A stretch of DNA of 64,000 nucleotides from Escherichia coli (GTDB taxonomy: Bacteria > Pseudomonadota > Gammaproteobacteria > Enterobacterales > Enterobacteriaceae): NCBI RefSeq assembly GCF_002854065.1, contig NZ_CP024147.1. One strand, given 5' to 3'. Positions 2,530 to 52,400 of this stretch are shown here, one piece after another. The position numbers were made by a program, and so were the translations under genes. Every line of letters starts with the position of its first letter. The first letter of the stretch is position 1. The notes beneath the pieces were generated by a model. It made no database searches. It had not been told where the DNA came from and saw only the letters and a program-made list of their open reading frames with translations.

Positions 2530-2840
2530 AATATTAAGGGATTTTATGTAAAGAGGCTATCTTACTAATATTTAATGACATTTGCCATTACCGTTTGTGT
2601 TCAGGGGTCGTAATGAGGGCCGTGTGGTTGGTCGTTGAACAGATGGCGTCGCCATCTGTTCAACATTCGTACCCGTGATTTCTCTATAACTATAACTCAC
2701 AGAACAACTTAGCGAGGAGCAGAGCGGTACGATCGTGAGAAACCCATTAAAGCACGCTGCAATGCGTGTCATTTTAACCGGATGCAGCGTGAACGCTTTA
2801 TCCGGGTAACGATACTGACCGATCGTCTGCAATTAAATAA

Positions 2841-3086
2841 TTACTCATTACCCCATTGATTCAAAAACTCTGCGATCTCATCAATGCGTACGGGATTAAT
2901 CCCCGCTTCAGCAGCCATTTCATGTTGGGCTTCTTCGCTGATCTCTTCATTGTTCATCAAACGGGTGAGCAGTAACTGGAAGTAGTGGGCCAGCGGTGTG
3001 CGTTCAGCCTCTGCGACAGGCTCTGCGCATTCGGTCGCGTACTCATCGGCAATATCAAAATATTTTAGCGGGATATCGTGGTTCAT
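2841..3086 (-). CDS. ymjA: Small conserved protein YmjA (DUF2543)
   Basis: ORF track 81 aa; position between sapA and puuP as in K-12; sequence recognised. Confidence 0.8.
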
Positions 3087-3171
3087 TATTTGCCCCTGGG
3101 GTTAATGCGCTAAGCATAAGGGCGGATGATAGCACTCGTGATCCGGGTCATACATCTTTTTATAGTTAATG

Positions 3172-3211
3172 GCGCGGCGCATTACCCTCAGGCAGGATAA
3201 TGCGCCGCGCA
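3172..3211 (-). terminator. Perfect 13-bp inverted repeat (gcgcggcgcatta / taatgcgccgcgc) just downstream of puuP stop; putative terminator
   Basis: Palindrome read directly; no strong U-tract follows, so terminator function is uncertain. Confidence 0.35.
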
Positions 3212-3219
3212 TCCGACTA

Positions 3220-4605
3220 TTACGTTTCGCTCACTGGCGTTCTGTCACCTTCGTACAGCGGCACTTTGCGATAGCGGCGGATCAGATACCACAAATATGC
3301 GCCGCCTAACGAAGCCCATACCAGACCGAGTGTCAGTGACGTTGACTCGAGGTTAACCCACAGCACACCCACCGTCAGCGCGCCAACCAGCGGCATCAGC
3401 AAATAGTGGAAGTGATCCTTCCAGCTTTTATTCATTCCTTTGCGCCGCCAGAAATGATTAAACACCGACAGATTCACGAAGGTAAACGCCACCAGAGCAC
3501 CGAAGTTAATTAACGCTGTGGCGGTAACTAAATCGAAGAACAGCGCCGACAACGCGACAATCCCGACCATAATGACGTTCAGTGCCGGAGTCCGCCATTT
3601 TGGGTGCACATAGCCAAACACGCGCTCCGGAAACACATTGTCACGCCCCATCACATACAGCAGACGCGACACGCTGGCATGTGAAGCCAGGCCAGAGGCT
3701 AACGTGTTCACAAACGTGGTGCAGAGGAAAATCGACTGGAAGAGCTTGCCGCCGACGTACAGCGCAATTTCAGGCAGTGCGGCGTCCGGGTCTTTAAAGC
3801 GGCTGATATCGGGGAAGAACAGCTGCATAAAGAACGACGCCGCGATAAAGATAACGCCACCATAGACCGCCGTCAGGAAGATGGCTTTCGGGATCACGCG
3901 TGCGGCGTCTGGTGTCTCTTCCGAAAGTGTGGTCACCGCATCGAAACCAAGGAAAGAGAAGCAGACGATCGTCGCCCCGGTAATAATCGGAATCAGATGC
4001 GCGTTCTCGCTGATAAACGGCTGAAGTGACCAGACGGTGCCAACGCCTTCTCCTTTATGCAGTCCCTGAACCACCAGGAAGATAAACACCACCATGATGG
4101 AGATTTGCACCAGTACAAACAGGGTATTGAAGTTAGCGACCAGGTTGACGCTCTTCAGATTCGCGGCGGTTAAAATGGCGACGAAGGTTACCACCCACAC
4201 CCACGGCGGCACTTCCGGGAAGAGGGCGGAGAGATAGATTTTCGCCAACAAAACGTTGATCATCGGCAAAAAGAGATAATCCAGCAGTGATGACCAGCCG
4301 ACCATAAATCCGACGTGCGGGTTAATCGACTTTTGCGCGTAGGTATAGGCCGAACCGGCCTCCGGAAACTGGCGAACCAGTTTGCCGTAGCTGATAGCGG
4401 TAAACAGCACGCCCGCCAGCGCCAGCAAATAGGACGCCGGAACGTGACCGTCGCTAATGCCGGAGACAATACCAAAAGTATCAAATACGGTCATCGGCGT
4501 GAGATAGGCCAGACCCATCATCACCACCTGCCACAATTTCAGTGATTTTCGCAGACGGGTTTTGCCGGGTTGCGCGGCAATATTCAGTGGTGAATTAATA
4601 GCCAT
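3220..4605 (-). CDS. puuP: Putrescine importer PuuP (amino acid/polyamine permease)
   Basis: ORF track 3220..4659; start trimmed to Met giving 461 aa ([12 protein letters not shown]...), the K-12 PuuP length; multi-pass membrane protein. Confidence 0.9.
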
Positions 4606-4907: not shown

Positions 4908-6308
4908 TTACGCGTTTTTCAACATCCACTCAATTTCTGTTTCTGTGATGAGGCGCTCAAACTGCAACAGCTCATCATTTTTACAGGCGTGATACACATG
5001 GCAAAACCGTTCGCCTAAATAGCGGCGCAGGTGATCATTCTCGATAAACTCACCCAGGGCATCGCTCTGGCGAATCGGGAAGGGTAAGCCATCCTGTTCC
5101 AGCCCGTTGCCTTCGACTTCTTCCTGCAACGGCAGCTCGTTATCAAGACCGTGCAAAATACCGGCAAAAATCGCTGCCATCACCAGATATGGGTTGGCAT
5201 CGGCACCCGCCACGCGATATTCCACGCGGTGATTATGGCGATCGCCGCATGGAATACGCAGGGCGACGGTACGGTTATTATGGCCCCACGACGCCTGCGT
5301 CGGTACATACATACCTGGCTGGAAGCGGCGATACGAGTTCACGTTTGGTGCCAGCAACGCCATTGATGACGGCATCAGGTCAATCATCCCGGCGAGCATC
5401 TTTTTCAGCAGCGGCGAATCTTCGCCTTCTGTGTCAGAAAGCACGTTCTCGCCACGATTATTTTGCATACTGATATGGATATGCATTCCGCTGCCCGCGT
5501 GCTCTTCATACGGCTTCGCCATAAAAGTGGCGTGCATCTTATGCTTTTCTGCCATCAGACGCACCAGGCGTTTTAGTGCCAGCGCATCATCGCAGGCTTC
5601 CAGCACGTTATCAGTATGGTAAAGGTTGATTTCAAACTGACCCGGCGAGGCCTCAGCGACCGCGCCATCTGCCGGAATCAGCTGTAACTGCGCCAGTTCA
5701 TCAATATCATTGAGCACGTCGGCGAAGTGGTTGAGGTTATCAACGGAGTAAACCTGGCTTTGTGTATTGCGGTCATCAGTGCCGGGCGCGCAGGGCGGTT
5801 GCAGATACCCTTCAGCGTCGCGCTGGCGATCCAGTAAATAGAACTCCAGCTCTACCGCTACGACCGGGAACAATCCGCGCTGGCGCAGCTGCTGCCACAG
5901 GCGGTTAAGAACGTTCCGCGGCTCAACGTCAAAGGGAGCGCCATCTTCATCGACCATGGTCAGGAGCATCTGACCGATAAACTCTGGATCGGCGGCAGAA
6001 GGGGTTAAGGAACCGAGAACAGGAACACAGGTACGATCCGGCTCGCCCATTTCCTGACCCAGACCTGCTTCTTCTACTACGTTGCCCAGAATATCCATTG
6101 CAAATACCGAGGCCGGGAAATAACACCCTTTCTCGAGCTTCTTCAGGCTTGAAACAGGAATACGTTTTCCACGGAAGCAACCATTCAAATCGGTAAGTAA
6201 AACATCAACATATTGCGTATTCGGGTAGCGCTCCAGGTAGCGTTTCACTTCCTGCGTAAAGGCGCTACCCCGCCTCTCTTCTGACTGCTGAACAAAGTTC
6301 TCTACTTC
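4908..6308 (-). pseudogene. puuA: Gamma-glutamylputrescine synthetase puuA, body of the gene, separated from its first 9 codons by IS1
   Basis: ORF track 4908..6248 (446 aa, glutamine-synthetase-like); in-frame upstream codons ...VENFVQQSEERRGSAFTQEVKRY run to the IS1 end at 6309; native N-terminus is on the other side of IS1. Confidence 0.85.
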
Positions 6309-6323
6309 GGTAATGACTCCAAC

Positions 6324-6827
6324 TTATTGATAGTGTTTTATGTTCAGATAATGCCCGATGACTTTGTCATGCAGCTCCACCGATTTTGAGAACGACAGCG
6401 ACTTCCGTCCCAGCCGTGCCAGGTGCTGCCTCAGATTCAGGTTATGCCGCTCAATTCGCTGCGTATATCGCTTGCTGATTACGTGCAGCTTTCCCTTCAG
6501 GCGGGATTCATACAGCGGCCAGCCATCCGTCATCCATATCACCACGTCAAAGGGTGACAGCAGGCTCATAAGACGCCCCAGCGTCGCCATAGTGCGTTCA
6601 CCGAATACGTGCGCAACAACCGTCTTCCGGAGCCTGTCATACGCGTAAAACAGCCAGCGCTGGCGCGATTTAGCCCCGACGTATCCCCACTGTTCGTCCA
6701 TTTCCGCGCAGACGATGACGTCACTGCCCGGCTGTATGCGCGAGGTTACCGACTGCGGCCTGAGTTTTTTAAATGGCGGAAAATCGTGTTGAGGCCAACG
6801 CCCATAATGCGGGCGGTTGCCCGGCAT
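6324..6827 (-). CDS. insB: IS1 InsB (expressed as InsAB-prime transposase by -1 frameshift)
   Basis: ORF track 167 aa recognised as IS1 InsB; overlaps insA in the -1 frame. Confidence 0.9.
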
Positions 6828-7021
6828 CCAACGCCATTCATGGCCATATCAATGATTTTCTGGTGCGTACCGGGTTGAGAAGCGGTGTAAGTGAACTGCA
6901 GTTGCCATGTTTTACGGCAGTGAGAGCAGAGATAGCGCTGATGTCCGGCAGTGCTTTTGCCGTTACGCACCACCCCGTCAGTAGCTGAACAGGAGGGACA
7001 GCTGATAGAAACAGAAGCCAC
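6746..7021 (-). CDS. insA: IS1 InsA
   Basis: ORF track 91 aa [43 protein letters not shown]... recognised as IS1 InsA. Confidence 0.92.
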
Positions 7022-7076
7022 TGGAGCACCTCAAAAACACCATCATACACTAAATCAGTAAGTTGGCAGCATCACC

Positions 7077-7103
7077 CTCTACTTCAACGATATTGGTTTC
7101 CAT
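7077..7103 (-). pseudogene. puuA: puuA 5-prime fragment: start codon plus first 9 codons (METNIVEVE) stranded upstream of IS1
   Basis: Reverse translation from ATG at 7103 gives METNIVEVE then the IS1 end; the same VE(N) codons resume at 6308, consistent with a 9-bp target duplication. Confidence 0.8.
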
Positions 7104-7314
7104 GATTCTTCGCCTTTGGTTTGTTTTCCGCTCGTTATCAAAGCGTAAAATATAATGACCACCATTCGAATCTGTATGCAAACTAAATGTTTGTCAAATG
7201 TTAAATTGAGTTTGCAAAAATGAAAACTCACTGCTAGATTGAAAAAATATTGAACATAAAGGTCATTTAAACCGCAGTAATGGCGATAATTTAGTCCACT
7301 TTGTGAGATTGAGC
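7104..7314. promoter_or_regulatory. puuA / puuD divergent control region with two similar A/T-rich motifs (AAAATATAATGACC 7147-7160; AAAAATATTGAACATA 7243-7258); candidate PuuR operators
   Basis: Motifs read directly; assignment to PuuR is inference from location only. Confidence 0.3.
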
Positions 7315-8079
7315 ATGGAAAATATAATGAACAATCCGGTTATCGGTGTCGTAATGTGCAGGAACAGGCTTAAGGGTCATGCGACCCAGACTCTGCAAGA
7401 AAAGTACCTGAATGCCATCATCCATGCAGGCGGCTTGCCAATTGCGCTGCCACATGCGCTGGCGGAACCGTCGTTACTTGAACAACTTTTGCCGAAACTC
7501 GATGGCATTTACCTTCCTGGTAGTCCCAGCAATGTGCAGCCGCACCTATATGGTGAAAACGGCGATGAGCCTGACGCCGATCCCGGGCGTGATCTTCTGA
7601 GCATGGCGTTAATTAATGCCGCACTCGAAAGGCGCATCCCCATTTTCGCCATCTGCCGGGGTTTACAGGAACTGGTGGTGGCAACCGGTGGTTCGTTGCA
7701 TCGCAAGCTGTGCGAACAGCCTGAATTGCTGGAACATCGGGAAGATCCCGAACTGCCGGTGGAACAGCAATATGCACCGTCGCATGAAGTTCAGGTTGAA
7801 GAGGGGGGATTGCTGTCTGCGTTGTTACCTGAATGTAGCAACTTTTGGGTAAACTCTCTGCATGGACAAGGGGCAAAGGTCGTTAGCCCACGGTTGCGTG
7901 TTGAAGCTCGCTCGCCGGATGGCTTAGTTGAGGCGGTTAGCGTCATCAATCATCCTTTTGCGCTGGGCGTACAGTGGCACCCGGAATGGAACAGTAGCGA
8001 GTACGCGCTTTCGCGTATATTGTTCGAGGGCTTTATCACCGCTTGTCAGCACCATATCGCTGAAAAACAGCGACTCTGA
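7315..8079 (+). CDS. puuD: Gamma-glutamyl-GABA hydrolase PuuD (class I glutamine amidotransferase-like)
   Basis: ORF track 7303..8079; start trimmed to MENIMNNPVIG giving 254 aa, the K-12 length. Confidence 0.9.
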   Translation: MENIMNNPVIGVVMCRNRLKGHATQTLQEKYLNAIIHAGGLPIALPHALAEPSLLEQLLPKLDGIYLPGSPSNVQPHLYGENGDEPDADPGRDLLSMALINAALERRIPIFAICRGLQELVVATGGSLHRKLCEQPELLEHREDPELPVEQQYAPSHEVQVEEGGLLSALLPECSNFWVNSLHGQGAKVVSPRLRVEARSPDGLVEAVSVINHPFALGVQWHPEWNSSEYALSRILFEGFITACQHHIAEKQRL

Positions 8080-8105
8080 CCACTACAGTTTAAGGAAATG
8101 CAAAT

Positions 8106-8663
8106 ATGAGTGATGAGGGACTGGCGCCAGGAAAACGCTTGTCGGAAATCCGCCAGCAGCAGGGGCTTTCACAACGTCGTGCCGCCGAACTCTCCGGGCT
8201 GACTCACAGTGCTATCAGTACGATAGAACAAGATAAAGTCAGCCCTGCCATCAGTACGCTGCAAAAGCTGCTGAAGGTGTATGGTCTGTCACTCTCGGAA
8301 TTCTTTTCCGAGCCGGAAAAACCTGATGAGCCGCAGGTCGTCATTAATCAGGACGATTTAATTGAGATGGGCAATCAGGGTGTGTCAATGAAGCTGGTTC
8401 ATAACGGTAAGCCGAATCGCACGCTGGCGATGATCTTTGAAACGTACCAGCCGGGCACAACCACTGGGGAAAGAATTAAGCATCAGGGTGAGGAAATAGG
8501 CACTGTACTGGAAGGTGAAATTGTTCTGACGATTAATGGTCAGGATTACCACCTCGTCGCGGGGCAAAGTTATGCCATTAATACCGGCATCCCGCACAGT
8601 TTCAGTAATACGTCGGCAGGTATTTGCCGAATTATCAGCGCCCATACGCCCACCACGTTTTAA
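8106..8663 (+). CDS. puuR: HTH-cupin transcriptional repressor PuuR
   Basis: ORF track 185 aa; XRE-type HTH (LSQRRAAELSGLTHSAISTIE) plus C-terminal cupin; synteny. Confidence 0.9.
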   Translation: MSDEGLAPGKRLSEIRQQQGLSQRRAAELSGLTHSAISTIEQDKVSPAISTLQKLLKVYGLSLSEFFSEPEKPDEPQVVINQDDLIEMGNQGVSMKLVHNGKPNRTLAMIFETYQPGTTTGERIKHQGEEIGTVLEGEIVLTINGQDYHLVAGQSYAINTGIPHSFSNTSAGICRIISAHTPTTF

Positions 8664-8812
8664 TCTTTTTGTTCTGTAAGCCGGGTAAGCGCAATGCGCC
8701 CGGCAATCCATAAAGAATGTCGCCAGAAATAAACGGGCATACGGCCCGGGGATCTCTGCGCCCTGACGTTCACAAACTGCATATATCTGATAGACGTGAA
8801 ACAGGAGTCATA

Positions 8813-10300
8813 ATGAATTTTCATCATCTGGCTTACTGGCAGGATAAAGCGTTAAGTCTCGCCATTGAAACCCGCTTATTTATTAACGGTGAATATACTG
8901 CTGCGGCGGAAAATGAAACCTTCGAAACATCCGATCCGGTTACCCAGGCACCGCTGGCGAAAATTGCCCGCGGCAAGAGCGTCGATATCGACCGTGCGGT
9001 GAGCGCAGCACGCGGCGTATTTGAACGCGGCGACTGGTCACTCTCTTCTCCGGCTAAACGTAAAGCGGTACTGAATAAACTCGCCGATTTAATGGAAGCC
9101 AACGCCGAAGAGCTGGCACTGCTGGAAACTCTCGACACCGGCAAACCGATTCGTCACAGTCTGCGTGATGATATTCCCGGCGCGGCGCGCGCCATTCGCT
9201 GGTACGCCGAAGCGATCGACAAAGTGTATGGCGAAGTGGCGACCACCAGTAGCCATGAGCTGGCGATGATCGTGCGTGAACCGGTCGGCGTAATTGCCGC
9301 CATCGTGCCGTGGAACTTCCCGCTGCTGCTGACTTGCTGGAAACTCGGCCCGGCGCTGGCGGCGGGAAACAGCGTGATTCTAAAACCGTCTGAAAAATCA
9401 CCGCTCAGTGCGATTCGTCTCGCCGGGCTGGCGAAAGAAGCAGGTCTGCCGGATGGCGTACTGAACGTAGTAACGGGTTTTGGTCATGAAGCGGGGCAGG
9501 CGCTGTCGCGTCATAACGATATCGATGCCATCGCCTTTACCGGTTCAACCCGTACCGGGAAACAGCTGCTGAAAGATGCGGGCGACAGCAACATGAAACG
9601 CGTCTGGCTGGAAGCGGGCGGCAAAAGCGCCAACATCGTTTTCGCTGACTGCCCGGATTTGCAACAGGCGGCAAGCGCCACCGCAGCAGGCATCTTCTAC
9701 AACCAGGGTCAGGTGTGCATCGCCGGAACGCGCCTGTTGCTGGAAGAGAGCATAGCTGATGAATTCTTAGCCCTGTTAAAACAGCAGGCGCAAAACTGGC
9801 AGCCGGGCCATCCACTTGATCCCGCAACCACCATGGGCACCTTAATCGACTGCGCCCACGCCGACTCGGTCCATAGCTTTATTCGGGAAGGCGAAAGCAA
9901 AGGGCAACTGTTGTTGGATGGCCGTAACGCCGGGCTGGCTGCCGCCATCGGCCCGACCATCTTTGTGGATGTAGACCCGAATGCGTCCTTAAGCCGCGAA
10001 GAGATTTTCGGTCCGGTGCTGGTTGTCACGCGTTTCACATCAGAAGAACAGGCGCTACAGCTTGCCAACGACAGCCAGTACGGCCTTGGCGCGGCGGTAT
10101 GGACGCGCGACCTCTCCCGCGCGCACCGCCTGAGCCGACGCCTGAAAGCCGGTTCCGTCTTCGTCAATAACTACAACGACGGCGATATGACCGTGCCGTT
10201 TGGCGGCTATAAGCAGAGCGGCAACGGTCGCGACAAATCCCTGCATGCCCTTGAAAAATTCACCGAACTGAAAACCATCTGGATAAGCCTGGAGGCCTGA
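8813..10300 (+). CDS. puuC: Gamma-glutamyl-gamma-aminobutyraldehyde dehydrogenase PuuC
   Basis: ORF track 8717..10300; start trimmed to MNFHHLAYWQDKA (495 aa); aldehyde dehydrogenase family. Confidence 0.9.
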   Translation: MNFHHLAYWQDKALSLAIETRLFINGEYTAAAENETFETSDPVTQAPLAKIARGKSVDIDRAVSAARGVFERGDWSLSSPAKRKAVLNKLADLMEANAEELALLETLDTGKPIRHSLRDDIPGAARAIRWYAEAIDKVYGEVATTSSHELAMIVREPVGVIAAIVPWNFPLLLTCWKLGPALAAGNSVILKPSEKSPLSAIRLAGLAKEAGLPDGVLNVVTGFGHEAGQALSRHNDIDAIAFTGSTRTGKQLLKDAGDSNMKRVWLEAGGKSANIVFADCPDLQQAASATAAGIFYNQGQVCIAGTRLLLEESIADEFLALLKQQAQNWQPGHPLDPATTMGTLIDCAHADSVHSFIREGESKGQLLLDGRNAGLAAAIGPTIFVDVDPNASLSREEIFGPVLVVTRFTSEEQALQLANDSQYGLGAAVWTRDLSRAHRLSRRLKAGSVFVNNYNDGDMTVPFGGYKQSGNGRDKSLHALEKFTELKTIWISLEA

Positions 10301-10301
10301 A

Positions 10302-11582
10302 ATGACCGAACATACCAGCAGTTATTACGCCGCCAGTGCGAATAAATACACGCCATTCGACACGCTGAATGAGTCAATCACCTGCGACGTTTGCGTGGTC
10401 GGCGGCGGCTATACCGGGCTGTCTTCCGCGCTACATCTGGCGGAAGCGGGCTTTGACGTAGTGGTTCTCGAAGCCTCACGCATCGGCTTTGGCGCCAGCG
10501 GACGCAACGGCGGACAGCTTGTGAACTCCTACAGCCGCGACATTGACGTGATCGAAAAAAGCTACGGCATGGACACCGCCCGTATGCTCGGCAGCATGAT
10601 GTTTGAGGGTGGTGAGATCATCCGCGAACGTATCAAACGTTATCAGATTGACTGCGACTACCGCCCCGGCGGTCTGTTTGTGGCGATGAATGATAAACAG
10701 CTCGCCACACTTGAAGAGCAGAAAGAGAACTGGGAACGCTACGGCAATAAACAGCTGGAGATGCTGGACGCCAACGCCATTCGCCGCGAGGTCGCCAGCG
10801 ATCGCTACACTGGTGCGCTGCTGGATCACAGCGGCGGGCATATTCACCCGCTGAACCTCGCCATTGGTGAAGCCGATGCCATTCGTCTCAACGGCGGACG
10901 TGTGTATGAGCTTTCTGCGGTGACGCAGATCCAGCACACCACGCCCGCCGTGGTGCGTACTACCAAAGGCCAGGTGACGGCGAAGTATGTGATTGTCGCC
11001 GGGAATGCGTACCTGGGCGATAAAGTGGAGCCGGAACTGGCGAAGCGTAGTATGCCGTGCGGCACGCAGGTGATCACCACTGAGCGGCTGTCAGAAGATT
11101 TAGCCCGTTCGCTGATCCCGAAAAACTACTGTGTGGAAGACTGTAACTATCTGCTTGATTACTACCGTCTTACCGCCGACAACCGTTTGCTGTACGGCGG
11201 CGGCGTGGTGTACGGCGCGCGCGACCCGGATGACGTTGAGCGTCTTGTGGTGCCGAAACTGCTGAAAACCTTCCCGCAGTTGAAGGGCGTGAAAATCGAC
11301 TATCGCTGGACGGGCAACTTCCTGCTGACCCTGTCGCGTATGCCGCAGTTCGGTCGCCTCGATACCAACATCTATTACATGCAGGGTTACAGCGGCCACG
11401 GCGTCACCTGTACTCATCTTGCCGGACGTTTGATTGCCGAACTGCTGCGCGGCGACGCCGAACGTTTCGACGCCTTCGCCAATCTGCCGCATTACCCGTT
11501 CCCCGGCGGGCGCACGCTGCGTGTGCCGTTTACCGCGATGGGCGCGGCTTATTACAGCCTGCGCGATCGTCTGGGCGTTTAA
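10302..11582 (+). CDS. puuB: Gamma-glutamylputrescine oxidase PuuB (FAD-dependent)
   Basis: ORF track 426 aa; N-terminal FAD-binding GxGxxG (VCVVGGGYTGLS). Confidence 0.9.
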   Translation: MTEHTSSYYAASANKYTPFDTLNESITCDVCVVGGGYTGLSSALHLAEAGFDVVVLEASRIGFGASGRNGGQLVNSYSRDIDVIEKSYGMDTARMLGSMMFEGGEIIRERIKRYQIDCDYRPGGLFVAMNDKQLATLEEQKENWERYGNKQLEMLDANAIRREVASDRYTGALLDHSGGHIHPLNLAIGEADAIRLNGGRVYELSAVTQIQHTTPAVVRTTKGQVTAKYVIVAGNAYLGDKVEPELAKRSMPCGTQVITTERLSEDLARSLIPKNYCVEDCNYLLDYYRLTADNRLLYGGGVVYGARDPDDVERLVVPKLLKTFPQLKGVKIDYRWTGNFLLTLSRMPQFGRLDTNIYYMQGYSGHGVTCTHLAGRLIAELLRGDAERFDAFANLPHYPFPGGRTLRVPFTAMGAAYYSLRDRLGV

Positions 11583-11619
11583 TTTCCGATTAACAGTGAA
11601 GAGTCAAAAGGTGTGAAAC

Positions 11620-12885
11620 ATGAGCAACAATGAATTCCATCAGCGTCGTCTTTCTGCCACCCCGCGCGGGGTTGGCGTGATGTGTAACTTCTTCGCCCAG
11701 TCGGCAGAAAACGCCACGCTTAAGGATGTTGAGGGCAACGAGTACATCGATTTCGCCGCAGGCATTGCGGTGCTGAACACGGGGCATCGCCACCCTGAAT
11801 TGGTCGCGGCGGTGGAGCAGCAACTGCAACAGTTTACCCACACCGCGTACCAGATTGTGCCGTATGAAAGCTACGTCACCCTGGCGGAGAAAATCAACGC
11901 CCTTGCCCCGGTGAGCGGGCAGGCCAAAACCGCGTTCTTCACCACCGGTGCGGAAGGGGTGGAAAACGCGGTGAAAATCGCCCGCGCCCATACCGGACGC
12001 CCTGGCGTGATTGCGTTTAGCGGCGGCTTCCACGGTCGTACGTATATGACCATGGCGCTGACCGGAAAAGTTGCGCCGTACAAAATCGGCTTCGGCCCGT
12101 TCCCCGGTTCGGTGTATCACGTACCTTATCCGTCAGATTTACACGGCATTTCAACACAGGACTCCCTCGACGCCATCGAACGCTTGTTTAAATCAGACAT
12201 CGAAGCGAAGCAGGTCGCGGCCATTATTTTCGAACCGGTGCAGGGCGAGGGCGGTTTCAACGTTGCGCCAAAAGAGCTGGTTGCCGCCATTCGCCGCCTG
12301 TGCGACGAGCACGGCATTGTGATGATTGCTGATGAAGTGCAAAGCGGCTTTGCGCGTACCGGTAAGCTGTTTGCCATGGATCATTACGCCGATAAGCCGG
12401 ATTTAATGACGATGGCGAAAAGCCTCGCGGGCGGGATGCCGCTTTCGGGCGTGGTCGGTAACGCGAATATTATGGACGCACCCGCGCCGGGCGGGCTTGG
12501 CGGCACCTACGCCGGTAACCCGCTGGCGGTGGCTGCCGCGCACGCGGTGCTCAACATTATCGACAAAGAATCACTCTGCGAACGCGCGAATCAACTGGGC
12601 CAGCGTCTGACAAACACGCTGATTGATGCCAAAGAAAGCGTTCCGGCCATCGCGGCGGTACGCGGTCTGGGGTCTATGATTGCGGCAGAGTTTAACGATC
12701 CGCAAACGGGCGAGCCGTCAGCGGCGATTGCACAGAAAATCCAGCAACGCGCGCTGGCGCAGGGACTGCTTCTACTGACCTGTGGCGCATACGGCAACGT
12801 GATTCGTTTCCTGTATCCGCTGACCATCCCGGATGCGCAATTCGATGCGGCAATGAAAATTTTGCAGGATGCGCTGAGAGATTAA
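11620..12885 (+). CDS. puuE: GABA aminotransferase PuuE (PLP-dependent)
   Basis: ORF track 421 aa; class III aminotransferase; synteny. Confidence 0.9.
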   Translation: MSNNEFHQRRLSATPRGVGVMCNFFAQSAENATLKDVEGNEYIDFAAGIAVLNTGHRHPELVAAVEQQLQQFTHTAYQIVPYESYVTLAEKINALAPVSGQAKTAFFTTGAEGVENAVKIARAHTGRPGVIAFSGGFHGRTYMTMALTGKVAPYKIGFGPFPGSVYHVPYPSDLHGISTQDSLDAIERLFKSDIEAKQVAAIIFEPVQGEGGFNVAPKELVAAIRRLCDEHGIVMIADEVQSGFARTGKLFAMDHYADKPDLMTMAKSLAGGMPLSGVVGNANIMDAPAPGGLGGTYAGNPLAVAAAHAVLNIIDKESLCERANQLGQRLTNTLIDAKESVPAIAAVRGLGSMIAAEFNDPQTGEPSAAIAQKIQQRALAQGLLLLTCGAYGNVIRFLYPLTIPDAQFDAAMKILQDALRD

Positions 12886-49001: not shown

Positions 49002-49408
49002 ATTATAGTTGGCTACAAAATGTATCTATTAATGATCTTTTACAGTATTTAAACTGACGTTAGCATGCTTAATTACCGTGGGTATTTCTACAAAAACCTT
49101 ATATATCCTTCCCTTAAATAACAAATCATTACCAATATATATGTAATCACAAAATATATATGCAGCGTCAATGAATTATTAGTGTGTTTTTGTTTTTTGT
49201 CGTTAATTTTTAGATTGAAGTGAGTTTTTTGTGGAATATAATTCCATCAACTGTTTTTTTGTATGCTTTTACTTGCCTGATTTTAATATTGATTTTGTGA
49301 ATTATATAAGCATTTCTTTATTGCTTATTTCACTATGAATATTTACTACGATTTATCTTCAAATTCTGCATGGCTTGTTACGCACGGTCTAGATCTAAGG
49401 AATTTTAT

Positions 49409-52400
49409 ATGCAAAGGAAAAAATTATTGTCTGTTTGTGTTGCCATGGCGTTAAGTAGCCAGACATGGGCTGCGGATACTTCAATACCCGACTCAACCGA
49501 AAAAACACGTAAGTCCAGTAAGATAACATGTCCGGCAAATATTCATTCCCTGAGCAAAGAGCAGCTAGAAAATTTATCCGCGGAGTGCAGAGAAAATAAA
49601 GATAGTGCAGTTTTACCATGGGCAGCTGCAGGTCTTGCTGCAGTAGCTACGGGAATTGCTATATATACCTTAAGTGACGATGACAATCACCACCATAATA
49701 ACTCCCCAGTTCCGGATGATGGCGGTGATACGCCAGTTCCGCCAGACGACGGCGGTGATACGCCGGTTCCGCCAGATGACGGCGGTGATACGCCGGTTCC
49801 GCCAGATGACGGCGGTGATACGCCAGTTCCGCCAGATGACGGCGGTGATACGCCAGTTCCGCCAGATGACGGCGATGATACGCCGGTTCCGCCAGATGAC
49901 GGCGGTGATACGCCAGTTCCGCCAGATGACGGCGGTGATACGCCAGTTCCGCCAGATGACGGCGGTGATACGCCGGTTCCACCAGATGATGGCGGTGATA
50001 CGCCAGTTCCAGACGACGGCGGTGATACGCCTGTTCCGCCAGACGATGGTGGCGATACCCCGGTTAAACACGATCCTGTCGTCTATAAAAATGACGTAAC
50101 CTGGGATCAGGACGCGAAAACCGTCAAAATTCGCGAAACCACCTTTACCTACAGCCAAAATGCCGATGGGAGTTACACCTTAACCGCGCCTGATGGCCTG
50201 ACGACGATAGTCAAGGGCTGGACAGTCCATGACGACAGCAACACCGTCATCTTTGATGGCGTAAATACGGCAGGTGGCATCACCTGGAGCTACGACGATG
50301 ATGGGCTCATCCATATCACTAAAGAGGCCGGTGTCGTTGTTGATGGCACAACCGGAACTGCGATTGATTTTGGTAATGCGATCATCACCGATCAGGGCGG
50401 CAATACGGCGCTGAATGGCGGTACTGTCATGACGGTTGAGGGTGACAACATCACCCTCAACAACGACGGTAAAACGACCGCCATCGGCGAGGGTTCGGTC
50501 GTTGGTATCCTTACTGGTGACGATATCACTATCAATAACAACGGCGAGACGGAAGTTGACGGCGGTACCGCAGTAATCATCAATGGCGATAATGCTACGC
50601 TGAACACTGCGGGCGACTCGACCATCACCAATGGTGGTACGGGTAGCCTTATCAATGGCGATAATGCGCGGGTCGATAATCAAGGTACCATGAGCGTTGA
50701 CGGTGAGAATTCCACTGGCTCGAAAATTGTCGGTGACGGTGCCACCATCAAACAGGAAGGCGACTTATACGTAAGCGGTGGTGCGCACGGTATTGACGTT
50801 GACGGCAATGATACGTTCGTTAGCAACAAAGGTAATATTACGGTCATCGAAGATAACTCTATTGGCATGCTGCTTGATGGTGATGGCGTCAGCGTGATCA
50901 ACATGGGCGACCTCAATGTTGGTCAGGCCGCAGCGGGTGAAAATGCCATTGGCATTCAGATCGACGGTGATAATGCGACATTTGTTAACGTTGGTGATAT
51001 TTCCGCGACCAATGCCGGAACCGGTGTCAGCGTTGCTGGGGATAAAGCTAATATTTCACTCGCGGGTGGGTTAGACGTTGGGGATTTCTCCACCGGTCTT
51101 GATGTCTCTGGCAATAATAACAACATGACGCTGGCGACTTATGAGCTGAATGTGACAGGGCAAAAAGCGACGGGTGTTAATGTTTCGGGTGATGGCAATA
51201 CGATTGAAATCGCAGGCAGCATTCTGGTTGATAAAGATCAGAAAGCCGATAATGCGCAACCTTACTTCTTTAATCCCTCAACCGGCGTAAATATCAGCGG
51301 TAATAACAATGACGTCACGCTGGATGGTCAGTTAACCGTTGTTGCTGATAGCGAAACCACTACGCGTTCCTATGCAAGTTACGACGGTGCTCAGGAGCAC
51401 ATTGCGGGTATTGTTATTGCTGGCGATGACAATACCTTCACGCTTAATGGCGGTGTCCATTTTGTCGGTGAAAAAAATGTCATGGATGATGGCTCAAAAC
51501 CTGCCGCATCTCGTCGTGGTATCGGAGATACACCGCTTATGAGCGTTGATGGGCATTCCTCAGTCTACCTCAATGGTGAGTCAACCATCAGCGGTGAGTT
51601 CCCGCTGGGTTTCGAAAATCTCATTCAACTGAGTAATGGCGCGGAGCTGGAGATTGGCGCTGACGCAACGTTTGATATGAGTGATGTGGATTCTTTCACT
51701 TATTATTATCGTGTAGCGTTATCCACTATTAGTATTGATTATGGTGCGAAGGCGACAAACAACGGTGAAGTGGAACTGAAAAATATCGGTTTTGCGGCTG
51801 CCTGGAATAAAGATTCAACGGTAATCAATAACGGATCCATTGGCCTGGCGATGTACGATTTTGGTACCGACCCGGCACCAAAAGTCTTTGACGTTGAATA
51901 CGGTGGGATTGGCGTTAACAATGGTACCATGACCACCAAAATGATGAATCAGCACAGTGTGCTGAATTATCCGGCAGAGTGGAACTTGTCTGATGGTACC
52001 TCTTTCAATAACAAGGCATTAGGGCTGACAGGTATGCTTGCCAGCTACTCGTCATCCATTCTGAACGGCGAAACGGGCATTATTGATATGTATGGCCGTG
52101 GCAGTGTAGGGATGCTAGCCATCGATAAATCAACCGCGGATAACGAAGGGCAAATCACCCTGGATACGCTGTGGGTTGATGAAAATGATGAAACATCGCT
52201 GCGTAATAATGTTGCAAATAGCACGGCGAAAGATTTCGGTGTGGGAATGGCTTCAGGTACCGATGCCTATAATGGGGCATTAACTAAAGCCACGGCAACC
52301 AACCACGAGAATGGTGTGATTACTGTCTACAACGCCGGTGCGGGGATGGCGGCGTATGGGAATACTAATACGGTCATTAACCAGGGAACCATCAACCTGG

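Follow-up and report, generated by a model that had tools for sequence, protein, structure and literature searches.

The DNA considered here is a 64,000-nucleotide (nt) stretch of an Escherichia coli genome (contig NZ_CP024147.1 of RefSeq assembly GCF_002854065.1), hereafter the window, which carries ydbA, an intact gene for a classical autotransporter of the BigA/YdbA family. Near its 5' end the gene contains an in-frame tandem array of short units that encode an acidic, proline-rich linker (Table 1). The structure of the array, its variation among strains and the pattern of substitutions within its units make it probable that the array is a coding minisatellite, encoding a disordered acidic proline-rich spacer, the length of which drifts by whole units and is only loosely constrained by selection.

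The preliminary description of this DNA had reported a twelve-unit in-frame array of 30-bp units in ydbA that encodes an acidic proline-rich linker, and on this point Tandem Repeats Finder, the spacing of repeats and a check of the reading frame agree. The stretch at 49715-50065 is the sole tandem array that the program reports in the window (period 30, 11.8 copies, 91% matches, score 562), and a repeat search finds 150-nt blocks that recur at an exact spacing of 30 nt across it. Read in register, the unit peptide is (T/S)PV(P)PDDG(G/D)D. The units had been said to differ only by wobble changes, one Gly-to-Asp change and one 3-bp deletion; these differences are all present, and to them the leading unit, which lies only partly inside the interval first given for the array, adds a Ser-for-Thr replacement and a second missing Pro codon. 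The remaining differences among the 30-nt units of the window are all synonymous third-position changes, 0-6 nt per pair with a mean of 2.2. With one letter for each distinct sequence the array reads ABCCDECDDFGH, that is, 8 distinct sequences among 12 units, in which the interior units are the most similar and the edge units the most divergent. Exact out-of-register matches within the array reach 59-89 nt. The G+C content of the array is 63.6%, as against 50.1% for the window, and the encoded peptide of 121 residues consists of 37 Asp, 35 Pro, 23 Gly, 13 Val, 12 Thr and 1 Ser, with a net charge of -37. Long open reading frames (ORFs) in other frames overlap the array at 49659-49982 (-), 49670-50158 (-) and 49674-50099 (+); considered as genes, they are unlikely candidates, being stop-free runs that arise from the G+C-rich repeat.

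The number of units varies greatly between strains. With only the two flanks of the array as query (345 + 333 nt), a window-type locus was found once in each of 373 of the 5426 complete E. coli genomes searched (about 7%), and the distance between the flanks differs among them. Among the records listed, the window-type allele spans an overall range of 2 to 18 units, in whole units only: outside O157:H7/O55:H7 (n=53) there are arrays of 2, 10, 11, 12, 13, 14, 15, 16 and 18 units, with modes at 13 and 15, and within O157:H7/O55:H7 (n=56) arrays of 2, 4, 5, 7, 8 and 9 units, of which 7 is the commonest (35 records). A second allele, the flanks of which match those of strain EP91A at 100% identity in nearly all of the 142 genomes that have it, carries 4, 7, 8, 9, 10 or 11 units among the records listed (n=46). 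Where the 678 nt of flanking sequence are 100% or 99.9% identical to the window, the number of units still runs from 2 to 18. The variability that had been predicted for the array is therefore found across complete E. coli genomes, and invariance, which had been named as the refuting result, was not.

The expectation that a change in length would leave the frame unbroken is likewise borne out, as every allele is built of whole units. Fifteen sequenced alleles differ from the window solely by whole 27- or 30-nt units, and all are in frame; intact coding sequences (CDSs) of the second allele, 5730, 5820, 5880 and 5940 nt long, carry 4, 7, 9 and 11 units, and hence differ by multiples of 30 nt; and the 18-unit strain has an intact ORF of 2014 residues. 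Head-to-tail copies beyond chance, differences in copy number between strains and changes by whole units are the properties of a coding minisatellite, or variable-number tandem repeat. The locus lacks the character of a phase-variable contingency locus, its units being 27 or 30 nt long and lying inside the coding sequence, with alleles in frame.

The order of the unit types indicates how the alleles may have arisen. Strain GPEC1446 has the 18-unit string AOCOCOCOPDQCDDRSGH, and the strings of O157:H7 strains are AOTOUCV (7 units), AOTOTOUCV (9), AOOTOUCV (8), AOUCV (5), AOTV (4) and AH (2), strings of the kind that pairing of units out of register would yield through local duplications and deletions. 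The second unit of the 2-unit allele combines the 5' part of unit O with the 3' part of unit V, and this chimera marks a crossover within a unit. The out-of-register matches within the window array are long enough for slippage or RecA-mediated exchange. The proposed route of gain and loss is one in which units would pair out of register, whether in replication slippage, in unequal exchange mediated by RecA or in both, and would thereby also be homogenised within a lineage. Sibling and derived isolates share their copy number (for example three laboratory-derived mutants at 955 nt, and several sets of O157 strains from the same study), an agreement that argues against random assembly error and points to a modest rate of change.

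Substitutions within the units reveal a further constraint. The 22 distinct variants of the 30-nt unit are polymorphic at 9 of the 10 third positions but at only 2 of the 20 first and second ones (Fisher p = 3.5e-5), and 17 of the 22 encode exactly TPVPPDDGGD; variation so nearly confined to third positions indicates that the peptide is under purifying selection. Units of the EP91A type encode the same peptide as those of the window, TPVPPDDGGD, with a consensus that differs at four synonymous sites (ACA/ACG, CCT/CCA, CCA/CCG and GGT/GGC). An identical peptide combined with an allele-specific synonymous signature is what concerted evolution under purifying selection would leave, and the likeness of interior units and divergence of edge units fits a process of homogenisation. 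Either recent expansion or homogenisation had been suggested for the array; the allele-specific signatures favour homogenisation, and a very recent burst is contradicted by the 8 distinct sequences among the 12 units.

Selection on the length of the array is a separate matter, on which the O157:H7 orthologue bears most directly. There the gene carries a single in-frame stop, common to a 7-unit and a 2-unit strain (codon 1012 in the 7-unit strain), that separates the N-terminal part from the beta-domain (loci at 6040-11754 and 6040-11607 of the extracted records). RefSeq annotates O157:H7 ydbA as two ordinary CDSs (named proline-rich domain-containing, beta strand repeat-containing or hypothetical proteins), not as a pseudogene. 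Because the array still varies in the gene that carries the stop, its variation is driven by mutation, with no need for selection. Window-type arrays with no more than 10 units were found in disrupted genes; the idea that short arrays occur only in broken genes, long arrays being selected, was considered and rejected, as the second allele has intact CDSs with 4, 7, 9 and 11 units.

An adaptive explanation would hold that changes in copy number are selected for escape from antibodies that recognise an immunodominant repeat or for tuning the reach of the N-terminal module past O-antigen or capsule, the array being an evolvability device. The existence of many length alleles among strains with identical flanks would suit such a device, as would a unit peptide under purifying selection, and there are precedents both in the proline-rich repeats of pertactin, with 13 alleles that differ in repeat number (PMC8931430), and in tolA, where stress tolerance changes with repeat number (PMC3477136). 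However, the array is equally variable in O157:H7/O55:H7, although the premature stop there removes the beta-domain and with it any selection on surface display; moreover, intact genes tolerate 4 to 18 units, and sibling isolates are identical in copy number. Adaptive length or antigenic variation is thus an unlikely explanation of the array.

What is proposed instead is a drifting spacer. The linker, which is most likely disordered or polyproline-II-like as judged from structural modelling, would join an N-terminal module (signal peptide, Cys loop, hydrophobic segment and His-rich patch) to the BigA_N domain, after which the long passenger follows. Through gain and loss of whole units the spacer ranges among strains from about 20 to about 180 residues with the frame intact, and a flexible tether of this kind might not depend on its exact length, so that selection on length would be loose.

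Several points weigh against this account or limit its reach. The unit tallies are samples, taken from the approximately 110 of 373 records listed. Sibling isolates are identical in copy number, so that the array cannot be counted among fast contingency loci. YdbA of E. coli K-12 has the same N-terminal module with a short degenerate linker and no array, which shows that the family can do without a long one. The mutational mechanism is deduced from the patterns of the alleles, and in the literature searched there was no experiment on expression, on the location of the N-terminus or on a linker-length phenotype of this protein. The same search found no paper that links ydbA to tandem repeats, and the matches to ydbA together with autotransporter were incidental mentions.

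Table 1. Features of ydbA and its tandem array in the window (aa, amino acid residues; i-E, independent E-value; positions are those of the 64,000-nt stretch)
Feature	Position	Strand	Residues	Remarks
ydbA-type (BigA/YdbA family) classical autotransporter gene, intact	49409-55273	+		1954 aa plus stop
ydbA start codon	ATG at 49409	+		MQRKK...; AAGGA 8 nt upstream
Sec-type signal peptide, putative	49409-49471	+	1-21	MQRKKLLSVCVAMALSSQTWA, cleaved before AD; basic n-region, short hydrophobic core and TWA-A site, by sequence reading
Cys loop	49529-49588	+	41-60	CPANIHSLSKEQLENLSAEC; C41, P42 and C60 invariant in family alignment
Ala/Gly-rich hydrophobic segment	49604-49672	+	66-88	SAVLPWAAAGLAAVATGIAIYTL; W71, G75 and A78 nearly invariant
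Acidic/His-rich junction	49673-49702	+	89-98	SDDDNHHHNN; His-containing polar stretch recurs here in homologues
Tandem array, in codon register	49703-50065	+	99-219	12 units (27 or 30 nt) plus 9-nt partial unit
Array unit 1 (leading unit, unit A)	from 49703			27 nt, SPVPDDGGD; Ser for Thr, one Pro codon fewer
Array 30-nt units after unit A				nine, TPVPPDDGGD; one of them TPVPPDDGDD (GGT to GAT, Gly to Asp) at 49850-49879
Array 27-nt unit without one Pro codon	50000-50026			
Array end				last 30-nt unit, then partial TPV
BigA_N small beta-barrel (PF25784)	50078-50320	+	224-304	Pfam i-E 5.5e-32; directly after array
BigA_beta sandwich domain (PF25783)	53975-54226	+	1523-1606	Pfam i-E 6.4e-24
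Autotransporter beta-domain (PF03797)	54593-55183	+	1729-1925	Pfam i-E 8e-18

The gene lies between ydbH, ynbE and ydbL upstream and pdxI downstream, as established from a strain with identical flanks and matching ORF coordinates, and K-12 ydbA is likewise directly upstream of pdxI. The DNA of the beta-domain is 94% identical to that of K-12 derivatives. Judged from sequence and position, the window ORF is the intact orthologue of K-12 ydbA, and the name ydbA first given to the gene is supported alike by synteny with pdxI, by the identity of the beta-domain and by the BigA_N, BigA_beta and autotransporter domains. In strains with identical flanks the start of the RefSeq CDS maps to the same ATG as that in Table 1. 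K-12 ydbA itself is interrupted by IS2 and IS30; its first fragment contains a tandem repeat in the passenger (294 bp, 3.2 copies, 90% identity, at 2553-3506 of the K-12 locus) that was not seen in the window gene. Upstream, ydbL is followed in the window by 408 nt (49002-49408) before ydbA begins, and in K-12 it is paaY, not ydbL, that lies immediately upstream (1-1892 of the K-12 locus), which indicates that the neighbourhood 5' of ydbA differs between strains.

The beta-domain of ydbA is present in 2531 of the 5426 complete genomes, and its N-terminal alleles fall into sharply divergent types: the window type in 373 genomes, the EP91A type in 142, and others including that of K-12, from which the N-terminal part of the window gene diverges. 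The N-terminal protein flanks of the EP91A type are about 62% identical to those of the window. Such a distribution suggests a mosaic or recombinant evolution of the 5' end.

The protein possesses the BigA_N and BigA_beta domains on which membership of the BigA/YdbA family depends, and a C-terminal 12-strand beta-domain (PF03797), as in type Va autotransporters; its C-terminal residue is Phe. Against the NCBIfam model auto_BigA (NF033178) it scores 1077 bits, below the cut-off of 3400, and it is therefore a relative within the BigA/YdbA family and not BigA itself. RefSeq names relatives 'pectate lyase-fold' or 'beta strand repeat-containing' proteins. At the N-terminus, the putative signal peptide is kept in all 17 aligned homologues. 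A lipoprotein signal was considered and set aside, since the Cys at position 10 is too early and is preceded by Val in the window protein. The conserved cysteines would delimit a disulfide loop, and the hydrophobic segment that follows is a borderline candidate for a membrane helix, with a Kyte-Doolittle mean of 1.86 over 19 residues and a summed Hessa scale of about +2.5 kcal/mol. It is unusual for an autotransporter to have another hydrophobic stretch beyond its cleavable signal peptide (the module at 49529-49702).

An AlphaFold2 model was made of the N-terminus of a natural 2-unit allele (240 residues, 17-sequence alignment). The BigA_N barrel is the only confident part of this N-terminus, with predicted local distance difference test (pLDDT) values of 83-96; residues 1-106 have values mostly below 60, the hydrophobic segment is below 40 and is not modelled as a helix, and the linker is of low confidence. 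With only BigA_N confident, the model is uninformative on topology. A sequence search for related solved structures found none.

The position of the linker raises the question of what it tethers. The passenger of a classical autotransporter has the N-terminus at its distal end, and the linker would thus tether the Cys loop and hydrophobic module to the passenger tip rather than lift the passenger off the cell. The preliminary description had spoken of a stalk between the N-terminal hydrophobic segment and the passenger; that is indeed where the array is placed, but 'stalk' fits only if the segment is anchored, the N-terminus being distal. Anchoring would be provided if the hydrophobic segment fixed the N-terminus in a membrane or in the translocation pore, with the linker spanning as in TonB and its length setting the slack. 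The segment and the Cys loop are conserved over 44 family clusters, always at the extreme N-terminus, its Kyte-Doolittle mean exceeds the classical threshold of 1.6, and a proline-rich linker directly follows it, as in TonB. Yet a stop-transfer helix after signal cleavage would leave 1850 downstream residues cytoplasmic, which is incompatible with an autotransporter, a summed Hessa scale of +2 to +4 kcal/mol is unfavourable for insertion, the modelled segment is neither helical nor above a pLDDT of 40, and a literature search gave nothing on such an anchor. An envelope anchor for the N-terminus is unlikely, and an anchored tether of this design as the purpose of the linker is a very doubtful proposition.

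A different use of the same parts would make the N-terminal module a 'hook', carried on a variable acidic polyproline tether at the passenger tip, which inserts in a target membrane or lodges in the envelope; the Ala/Gly-rich hydrophobic segment could then be fusion-peptide-like. This is quite improbable on present grounds. Were it true, the passenger would be held at both ends when lodged, copy number would set the reach, and the architecture would be one undescribed for classical autotransporters.

The composition of the linker invites one further explanation, in which the DDGGD motifs and the His run next to them act as a chelator of Ca2+, Mg2+ or a transition metal, for instance as a bridge to lipopolysaccharide, and the number of copies sets the capacity. 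A peptide with 37 Asp in 121 residues and a net charge of -37, with a conserved His-rich patch just upstream, might be expected to bind cations. Nevertheless, no Pfam or NCBIfam metal-binding repeat matches it, relatives use PVD or PxPD repeats without DDGGD, and the proposal draws on composition alone, so that cation binding must be considered extremely improbable.

Comparison across the family returns the argument to a spacer of drifting length. In an exhaustive search with residues 1-99, which precede the array, against 1.84 billion cluster representatives, the N-terminal module was matched in only 44 clusters, always at the extreme N-terminus; a homologue search with residues 1-330 gave 14 proteins, mostly fragments. 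Members with a name are from Escherichia, Citrobacter, Budvicia, [Enterobacter] lignolyticus and Superficieibacter. The long members are built alike, with signal peptide, Cys loop, hydrophobic segment, a polar patch (often His-rich), acidic linker and BigA_N, and within this plan the linker unit changes with lineage: 10 residues in the window, 9 (DDGGNVTPP) in Escherichia albertii, 7 (DDGGNTP) in another E. coli protein, and PVD or PxPD repeats in a Citrobacter protein and other relatives; a few members have only a short Gly/Asp-rich linker. The E. albertii orthologue has an independent 27-bp unit in 3-16 copies (14 full-length cluster members), and the length of its full-length protein is exactly 1796 + 9 x (units - 3). 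What is conserved here seems to be the need for an acidic, mostly proline-rich spacer, and not a particular unit or length.

In three database proteins the YdbA N-terminal module is fused to unrelated sequence, either just past the hydrophobic/His region or once the linker has run for a few residues. One continues into a C-terminal part with PF24421/PF24489, which is presumably phage tail-related, another into an MscS-like C-terminus (PF21082), and the third into the array read out of frame. Such fusions suggest that some genomes have junctions produced by rearrangement or frameshift at the repeat or close to it.

One of the two nearest known counterparts of the array is found in the same species. 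The 15-mer array of tolA has 8-16 copies in 234 E. coli strains and contracts at 6.9e-5, mostly in a RecA-dependent manner (Zhou, Michiels & Aertsen 2012, PMC3477136). Like that of ydbA, it is an in-frame array in a gene for an envelope protein, it forms a spacer between an N-terminal segment and a functional domain, and it is polymorphic by whole-unit changes. The two differ in that the tolA 15-mers encode an alpha-helical Ala/Lys/Glu-rich domain that spans the periplasm, whereas the ydbA unit is 30 nt long and encodes a Pro/Asp/Gly-rich, probably disordered peptide. The range in ydbA is also wider (2-18), and it is for tolA, the one E. coli analogue with such measurements, that frequency, RecA dependence and phenotypic effects have been determined.

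The other is pertactin of Bordetella, a classical autotransporter in which the number of short proline-rich repeats varies from allele to allele. Its repeat regions R1 and R2 have a loose structure, and their variation is slow, seen from strain to strain and not in the course of an infection (PMC8931430). The pertactin repeats are 3-5 residues long, those of R1 being in beta-helix loops and those of R2 close to the C-terminal end of the helix, whereas the 10-residue unit of ydbA precedes the first folded domain of the passenger and stands beside a hydrophobic N-terminal module that is absent from pertactin. The architecture is shared by the BigA/YdbA linkers of E. albertii, Citrobacter, Superficieibacter and others, which occupy the same position as that of the window and vary in copy number (3-16 in E. 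albertii), but differ from it in unit length and sequence (DDGGNVTPP, DDGGNTP and PVD/PxPD). Low-complexity spacers beside an anchor are also seen in the proline-rich spacer of TonB and the Ser-Asp stalk of staphylococcal ClfA, where they are thought to give reach and to tolerate changes in length. The anchor is an inner-membrane helix in TonB and a sortase link in ClfA, and both are established, whereas the anchoring of the YdbA N-terminus is putative and topologically problematic.

For strain typing, a possible connection exists with the loci used for O157 in MLVA, an analysis of variable-number tandem repeats at multiple loci, among which Vhec5 has 7 repeats in every isolate of one study, with 6-9 for Vhec6. 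That the ydbA array is Vhec5 or Vhec6 is an unconfirmed lead, to which may be added that the commonest O157:H7 copy number found here is also 7. In any case the array of the window allele, stable in siblings but differing from lineage to lineage, also inside O157:H7, might be used as a slow marker for typing.

Current understanding is not overturned by these results, and the array is a real but ordinary coding minisatellite, of a kind already known from tolA and pertactin. It is nonetheless a clean natural example in E. coli, in which concerted evolution, purifying selection on the encoded peptide and free variation in length are found together. It also points to an unstudied feature of the BigA/YdbA family, namely a conserved hydrophobic N-terminal module carried on an acidic, mostly proline-rich linker of unconstrained length, and the natural alleles of 2 to 18 units provide a ready-made series with which the function of that linker could be probed.

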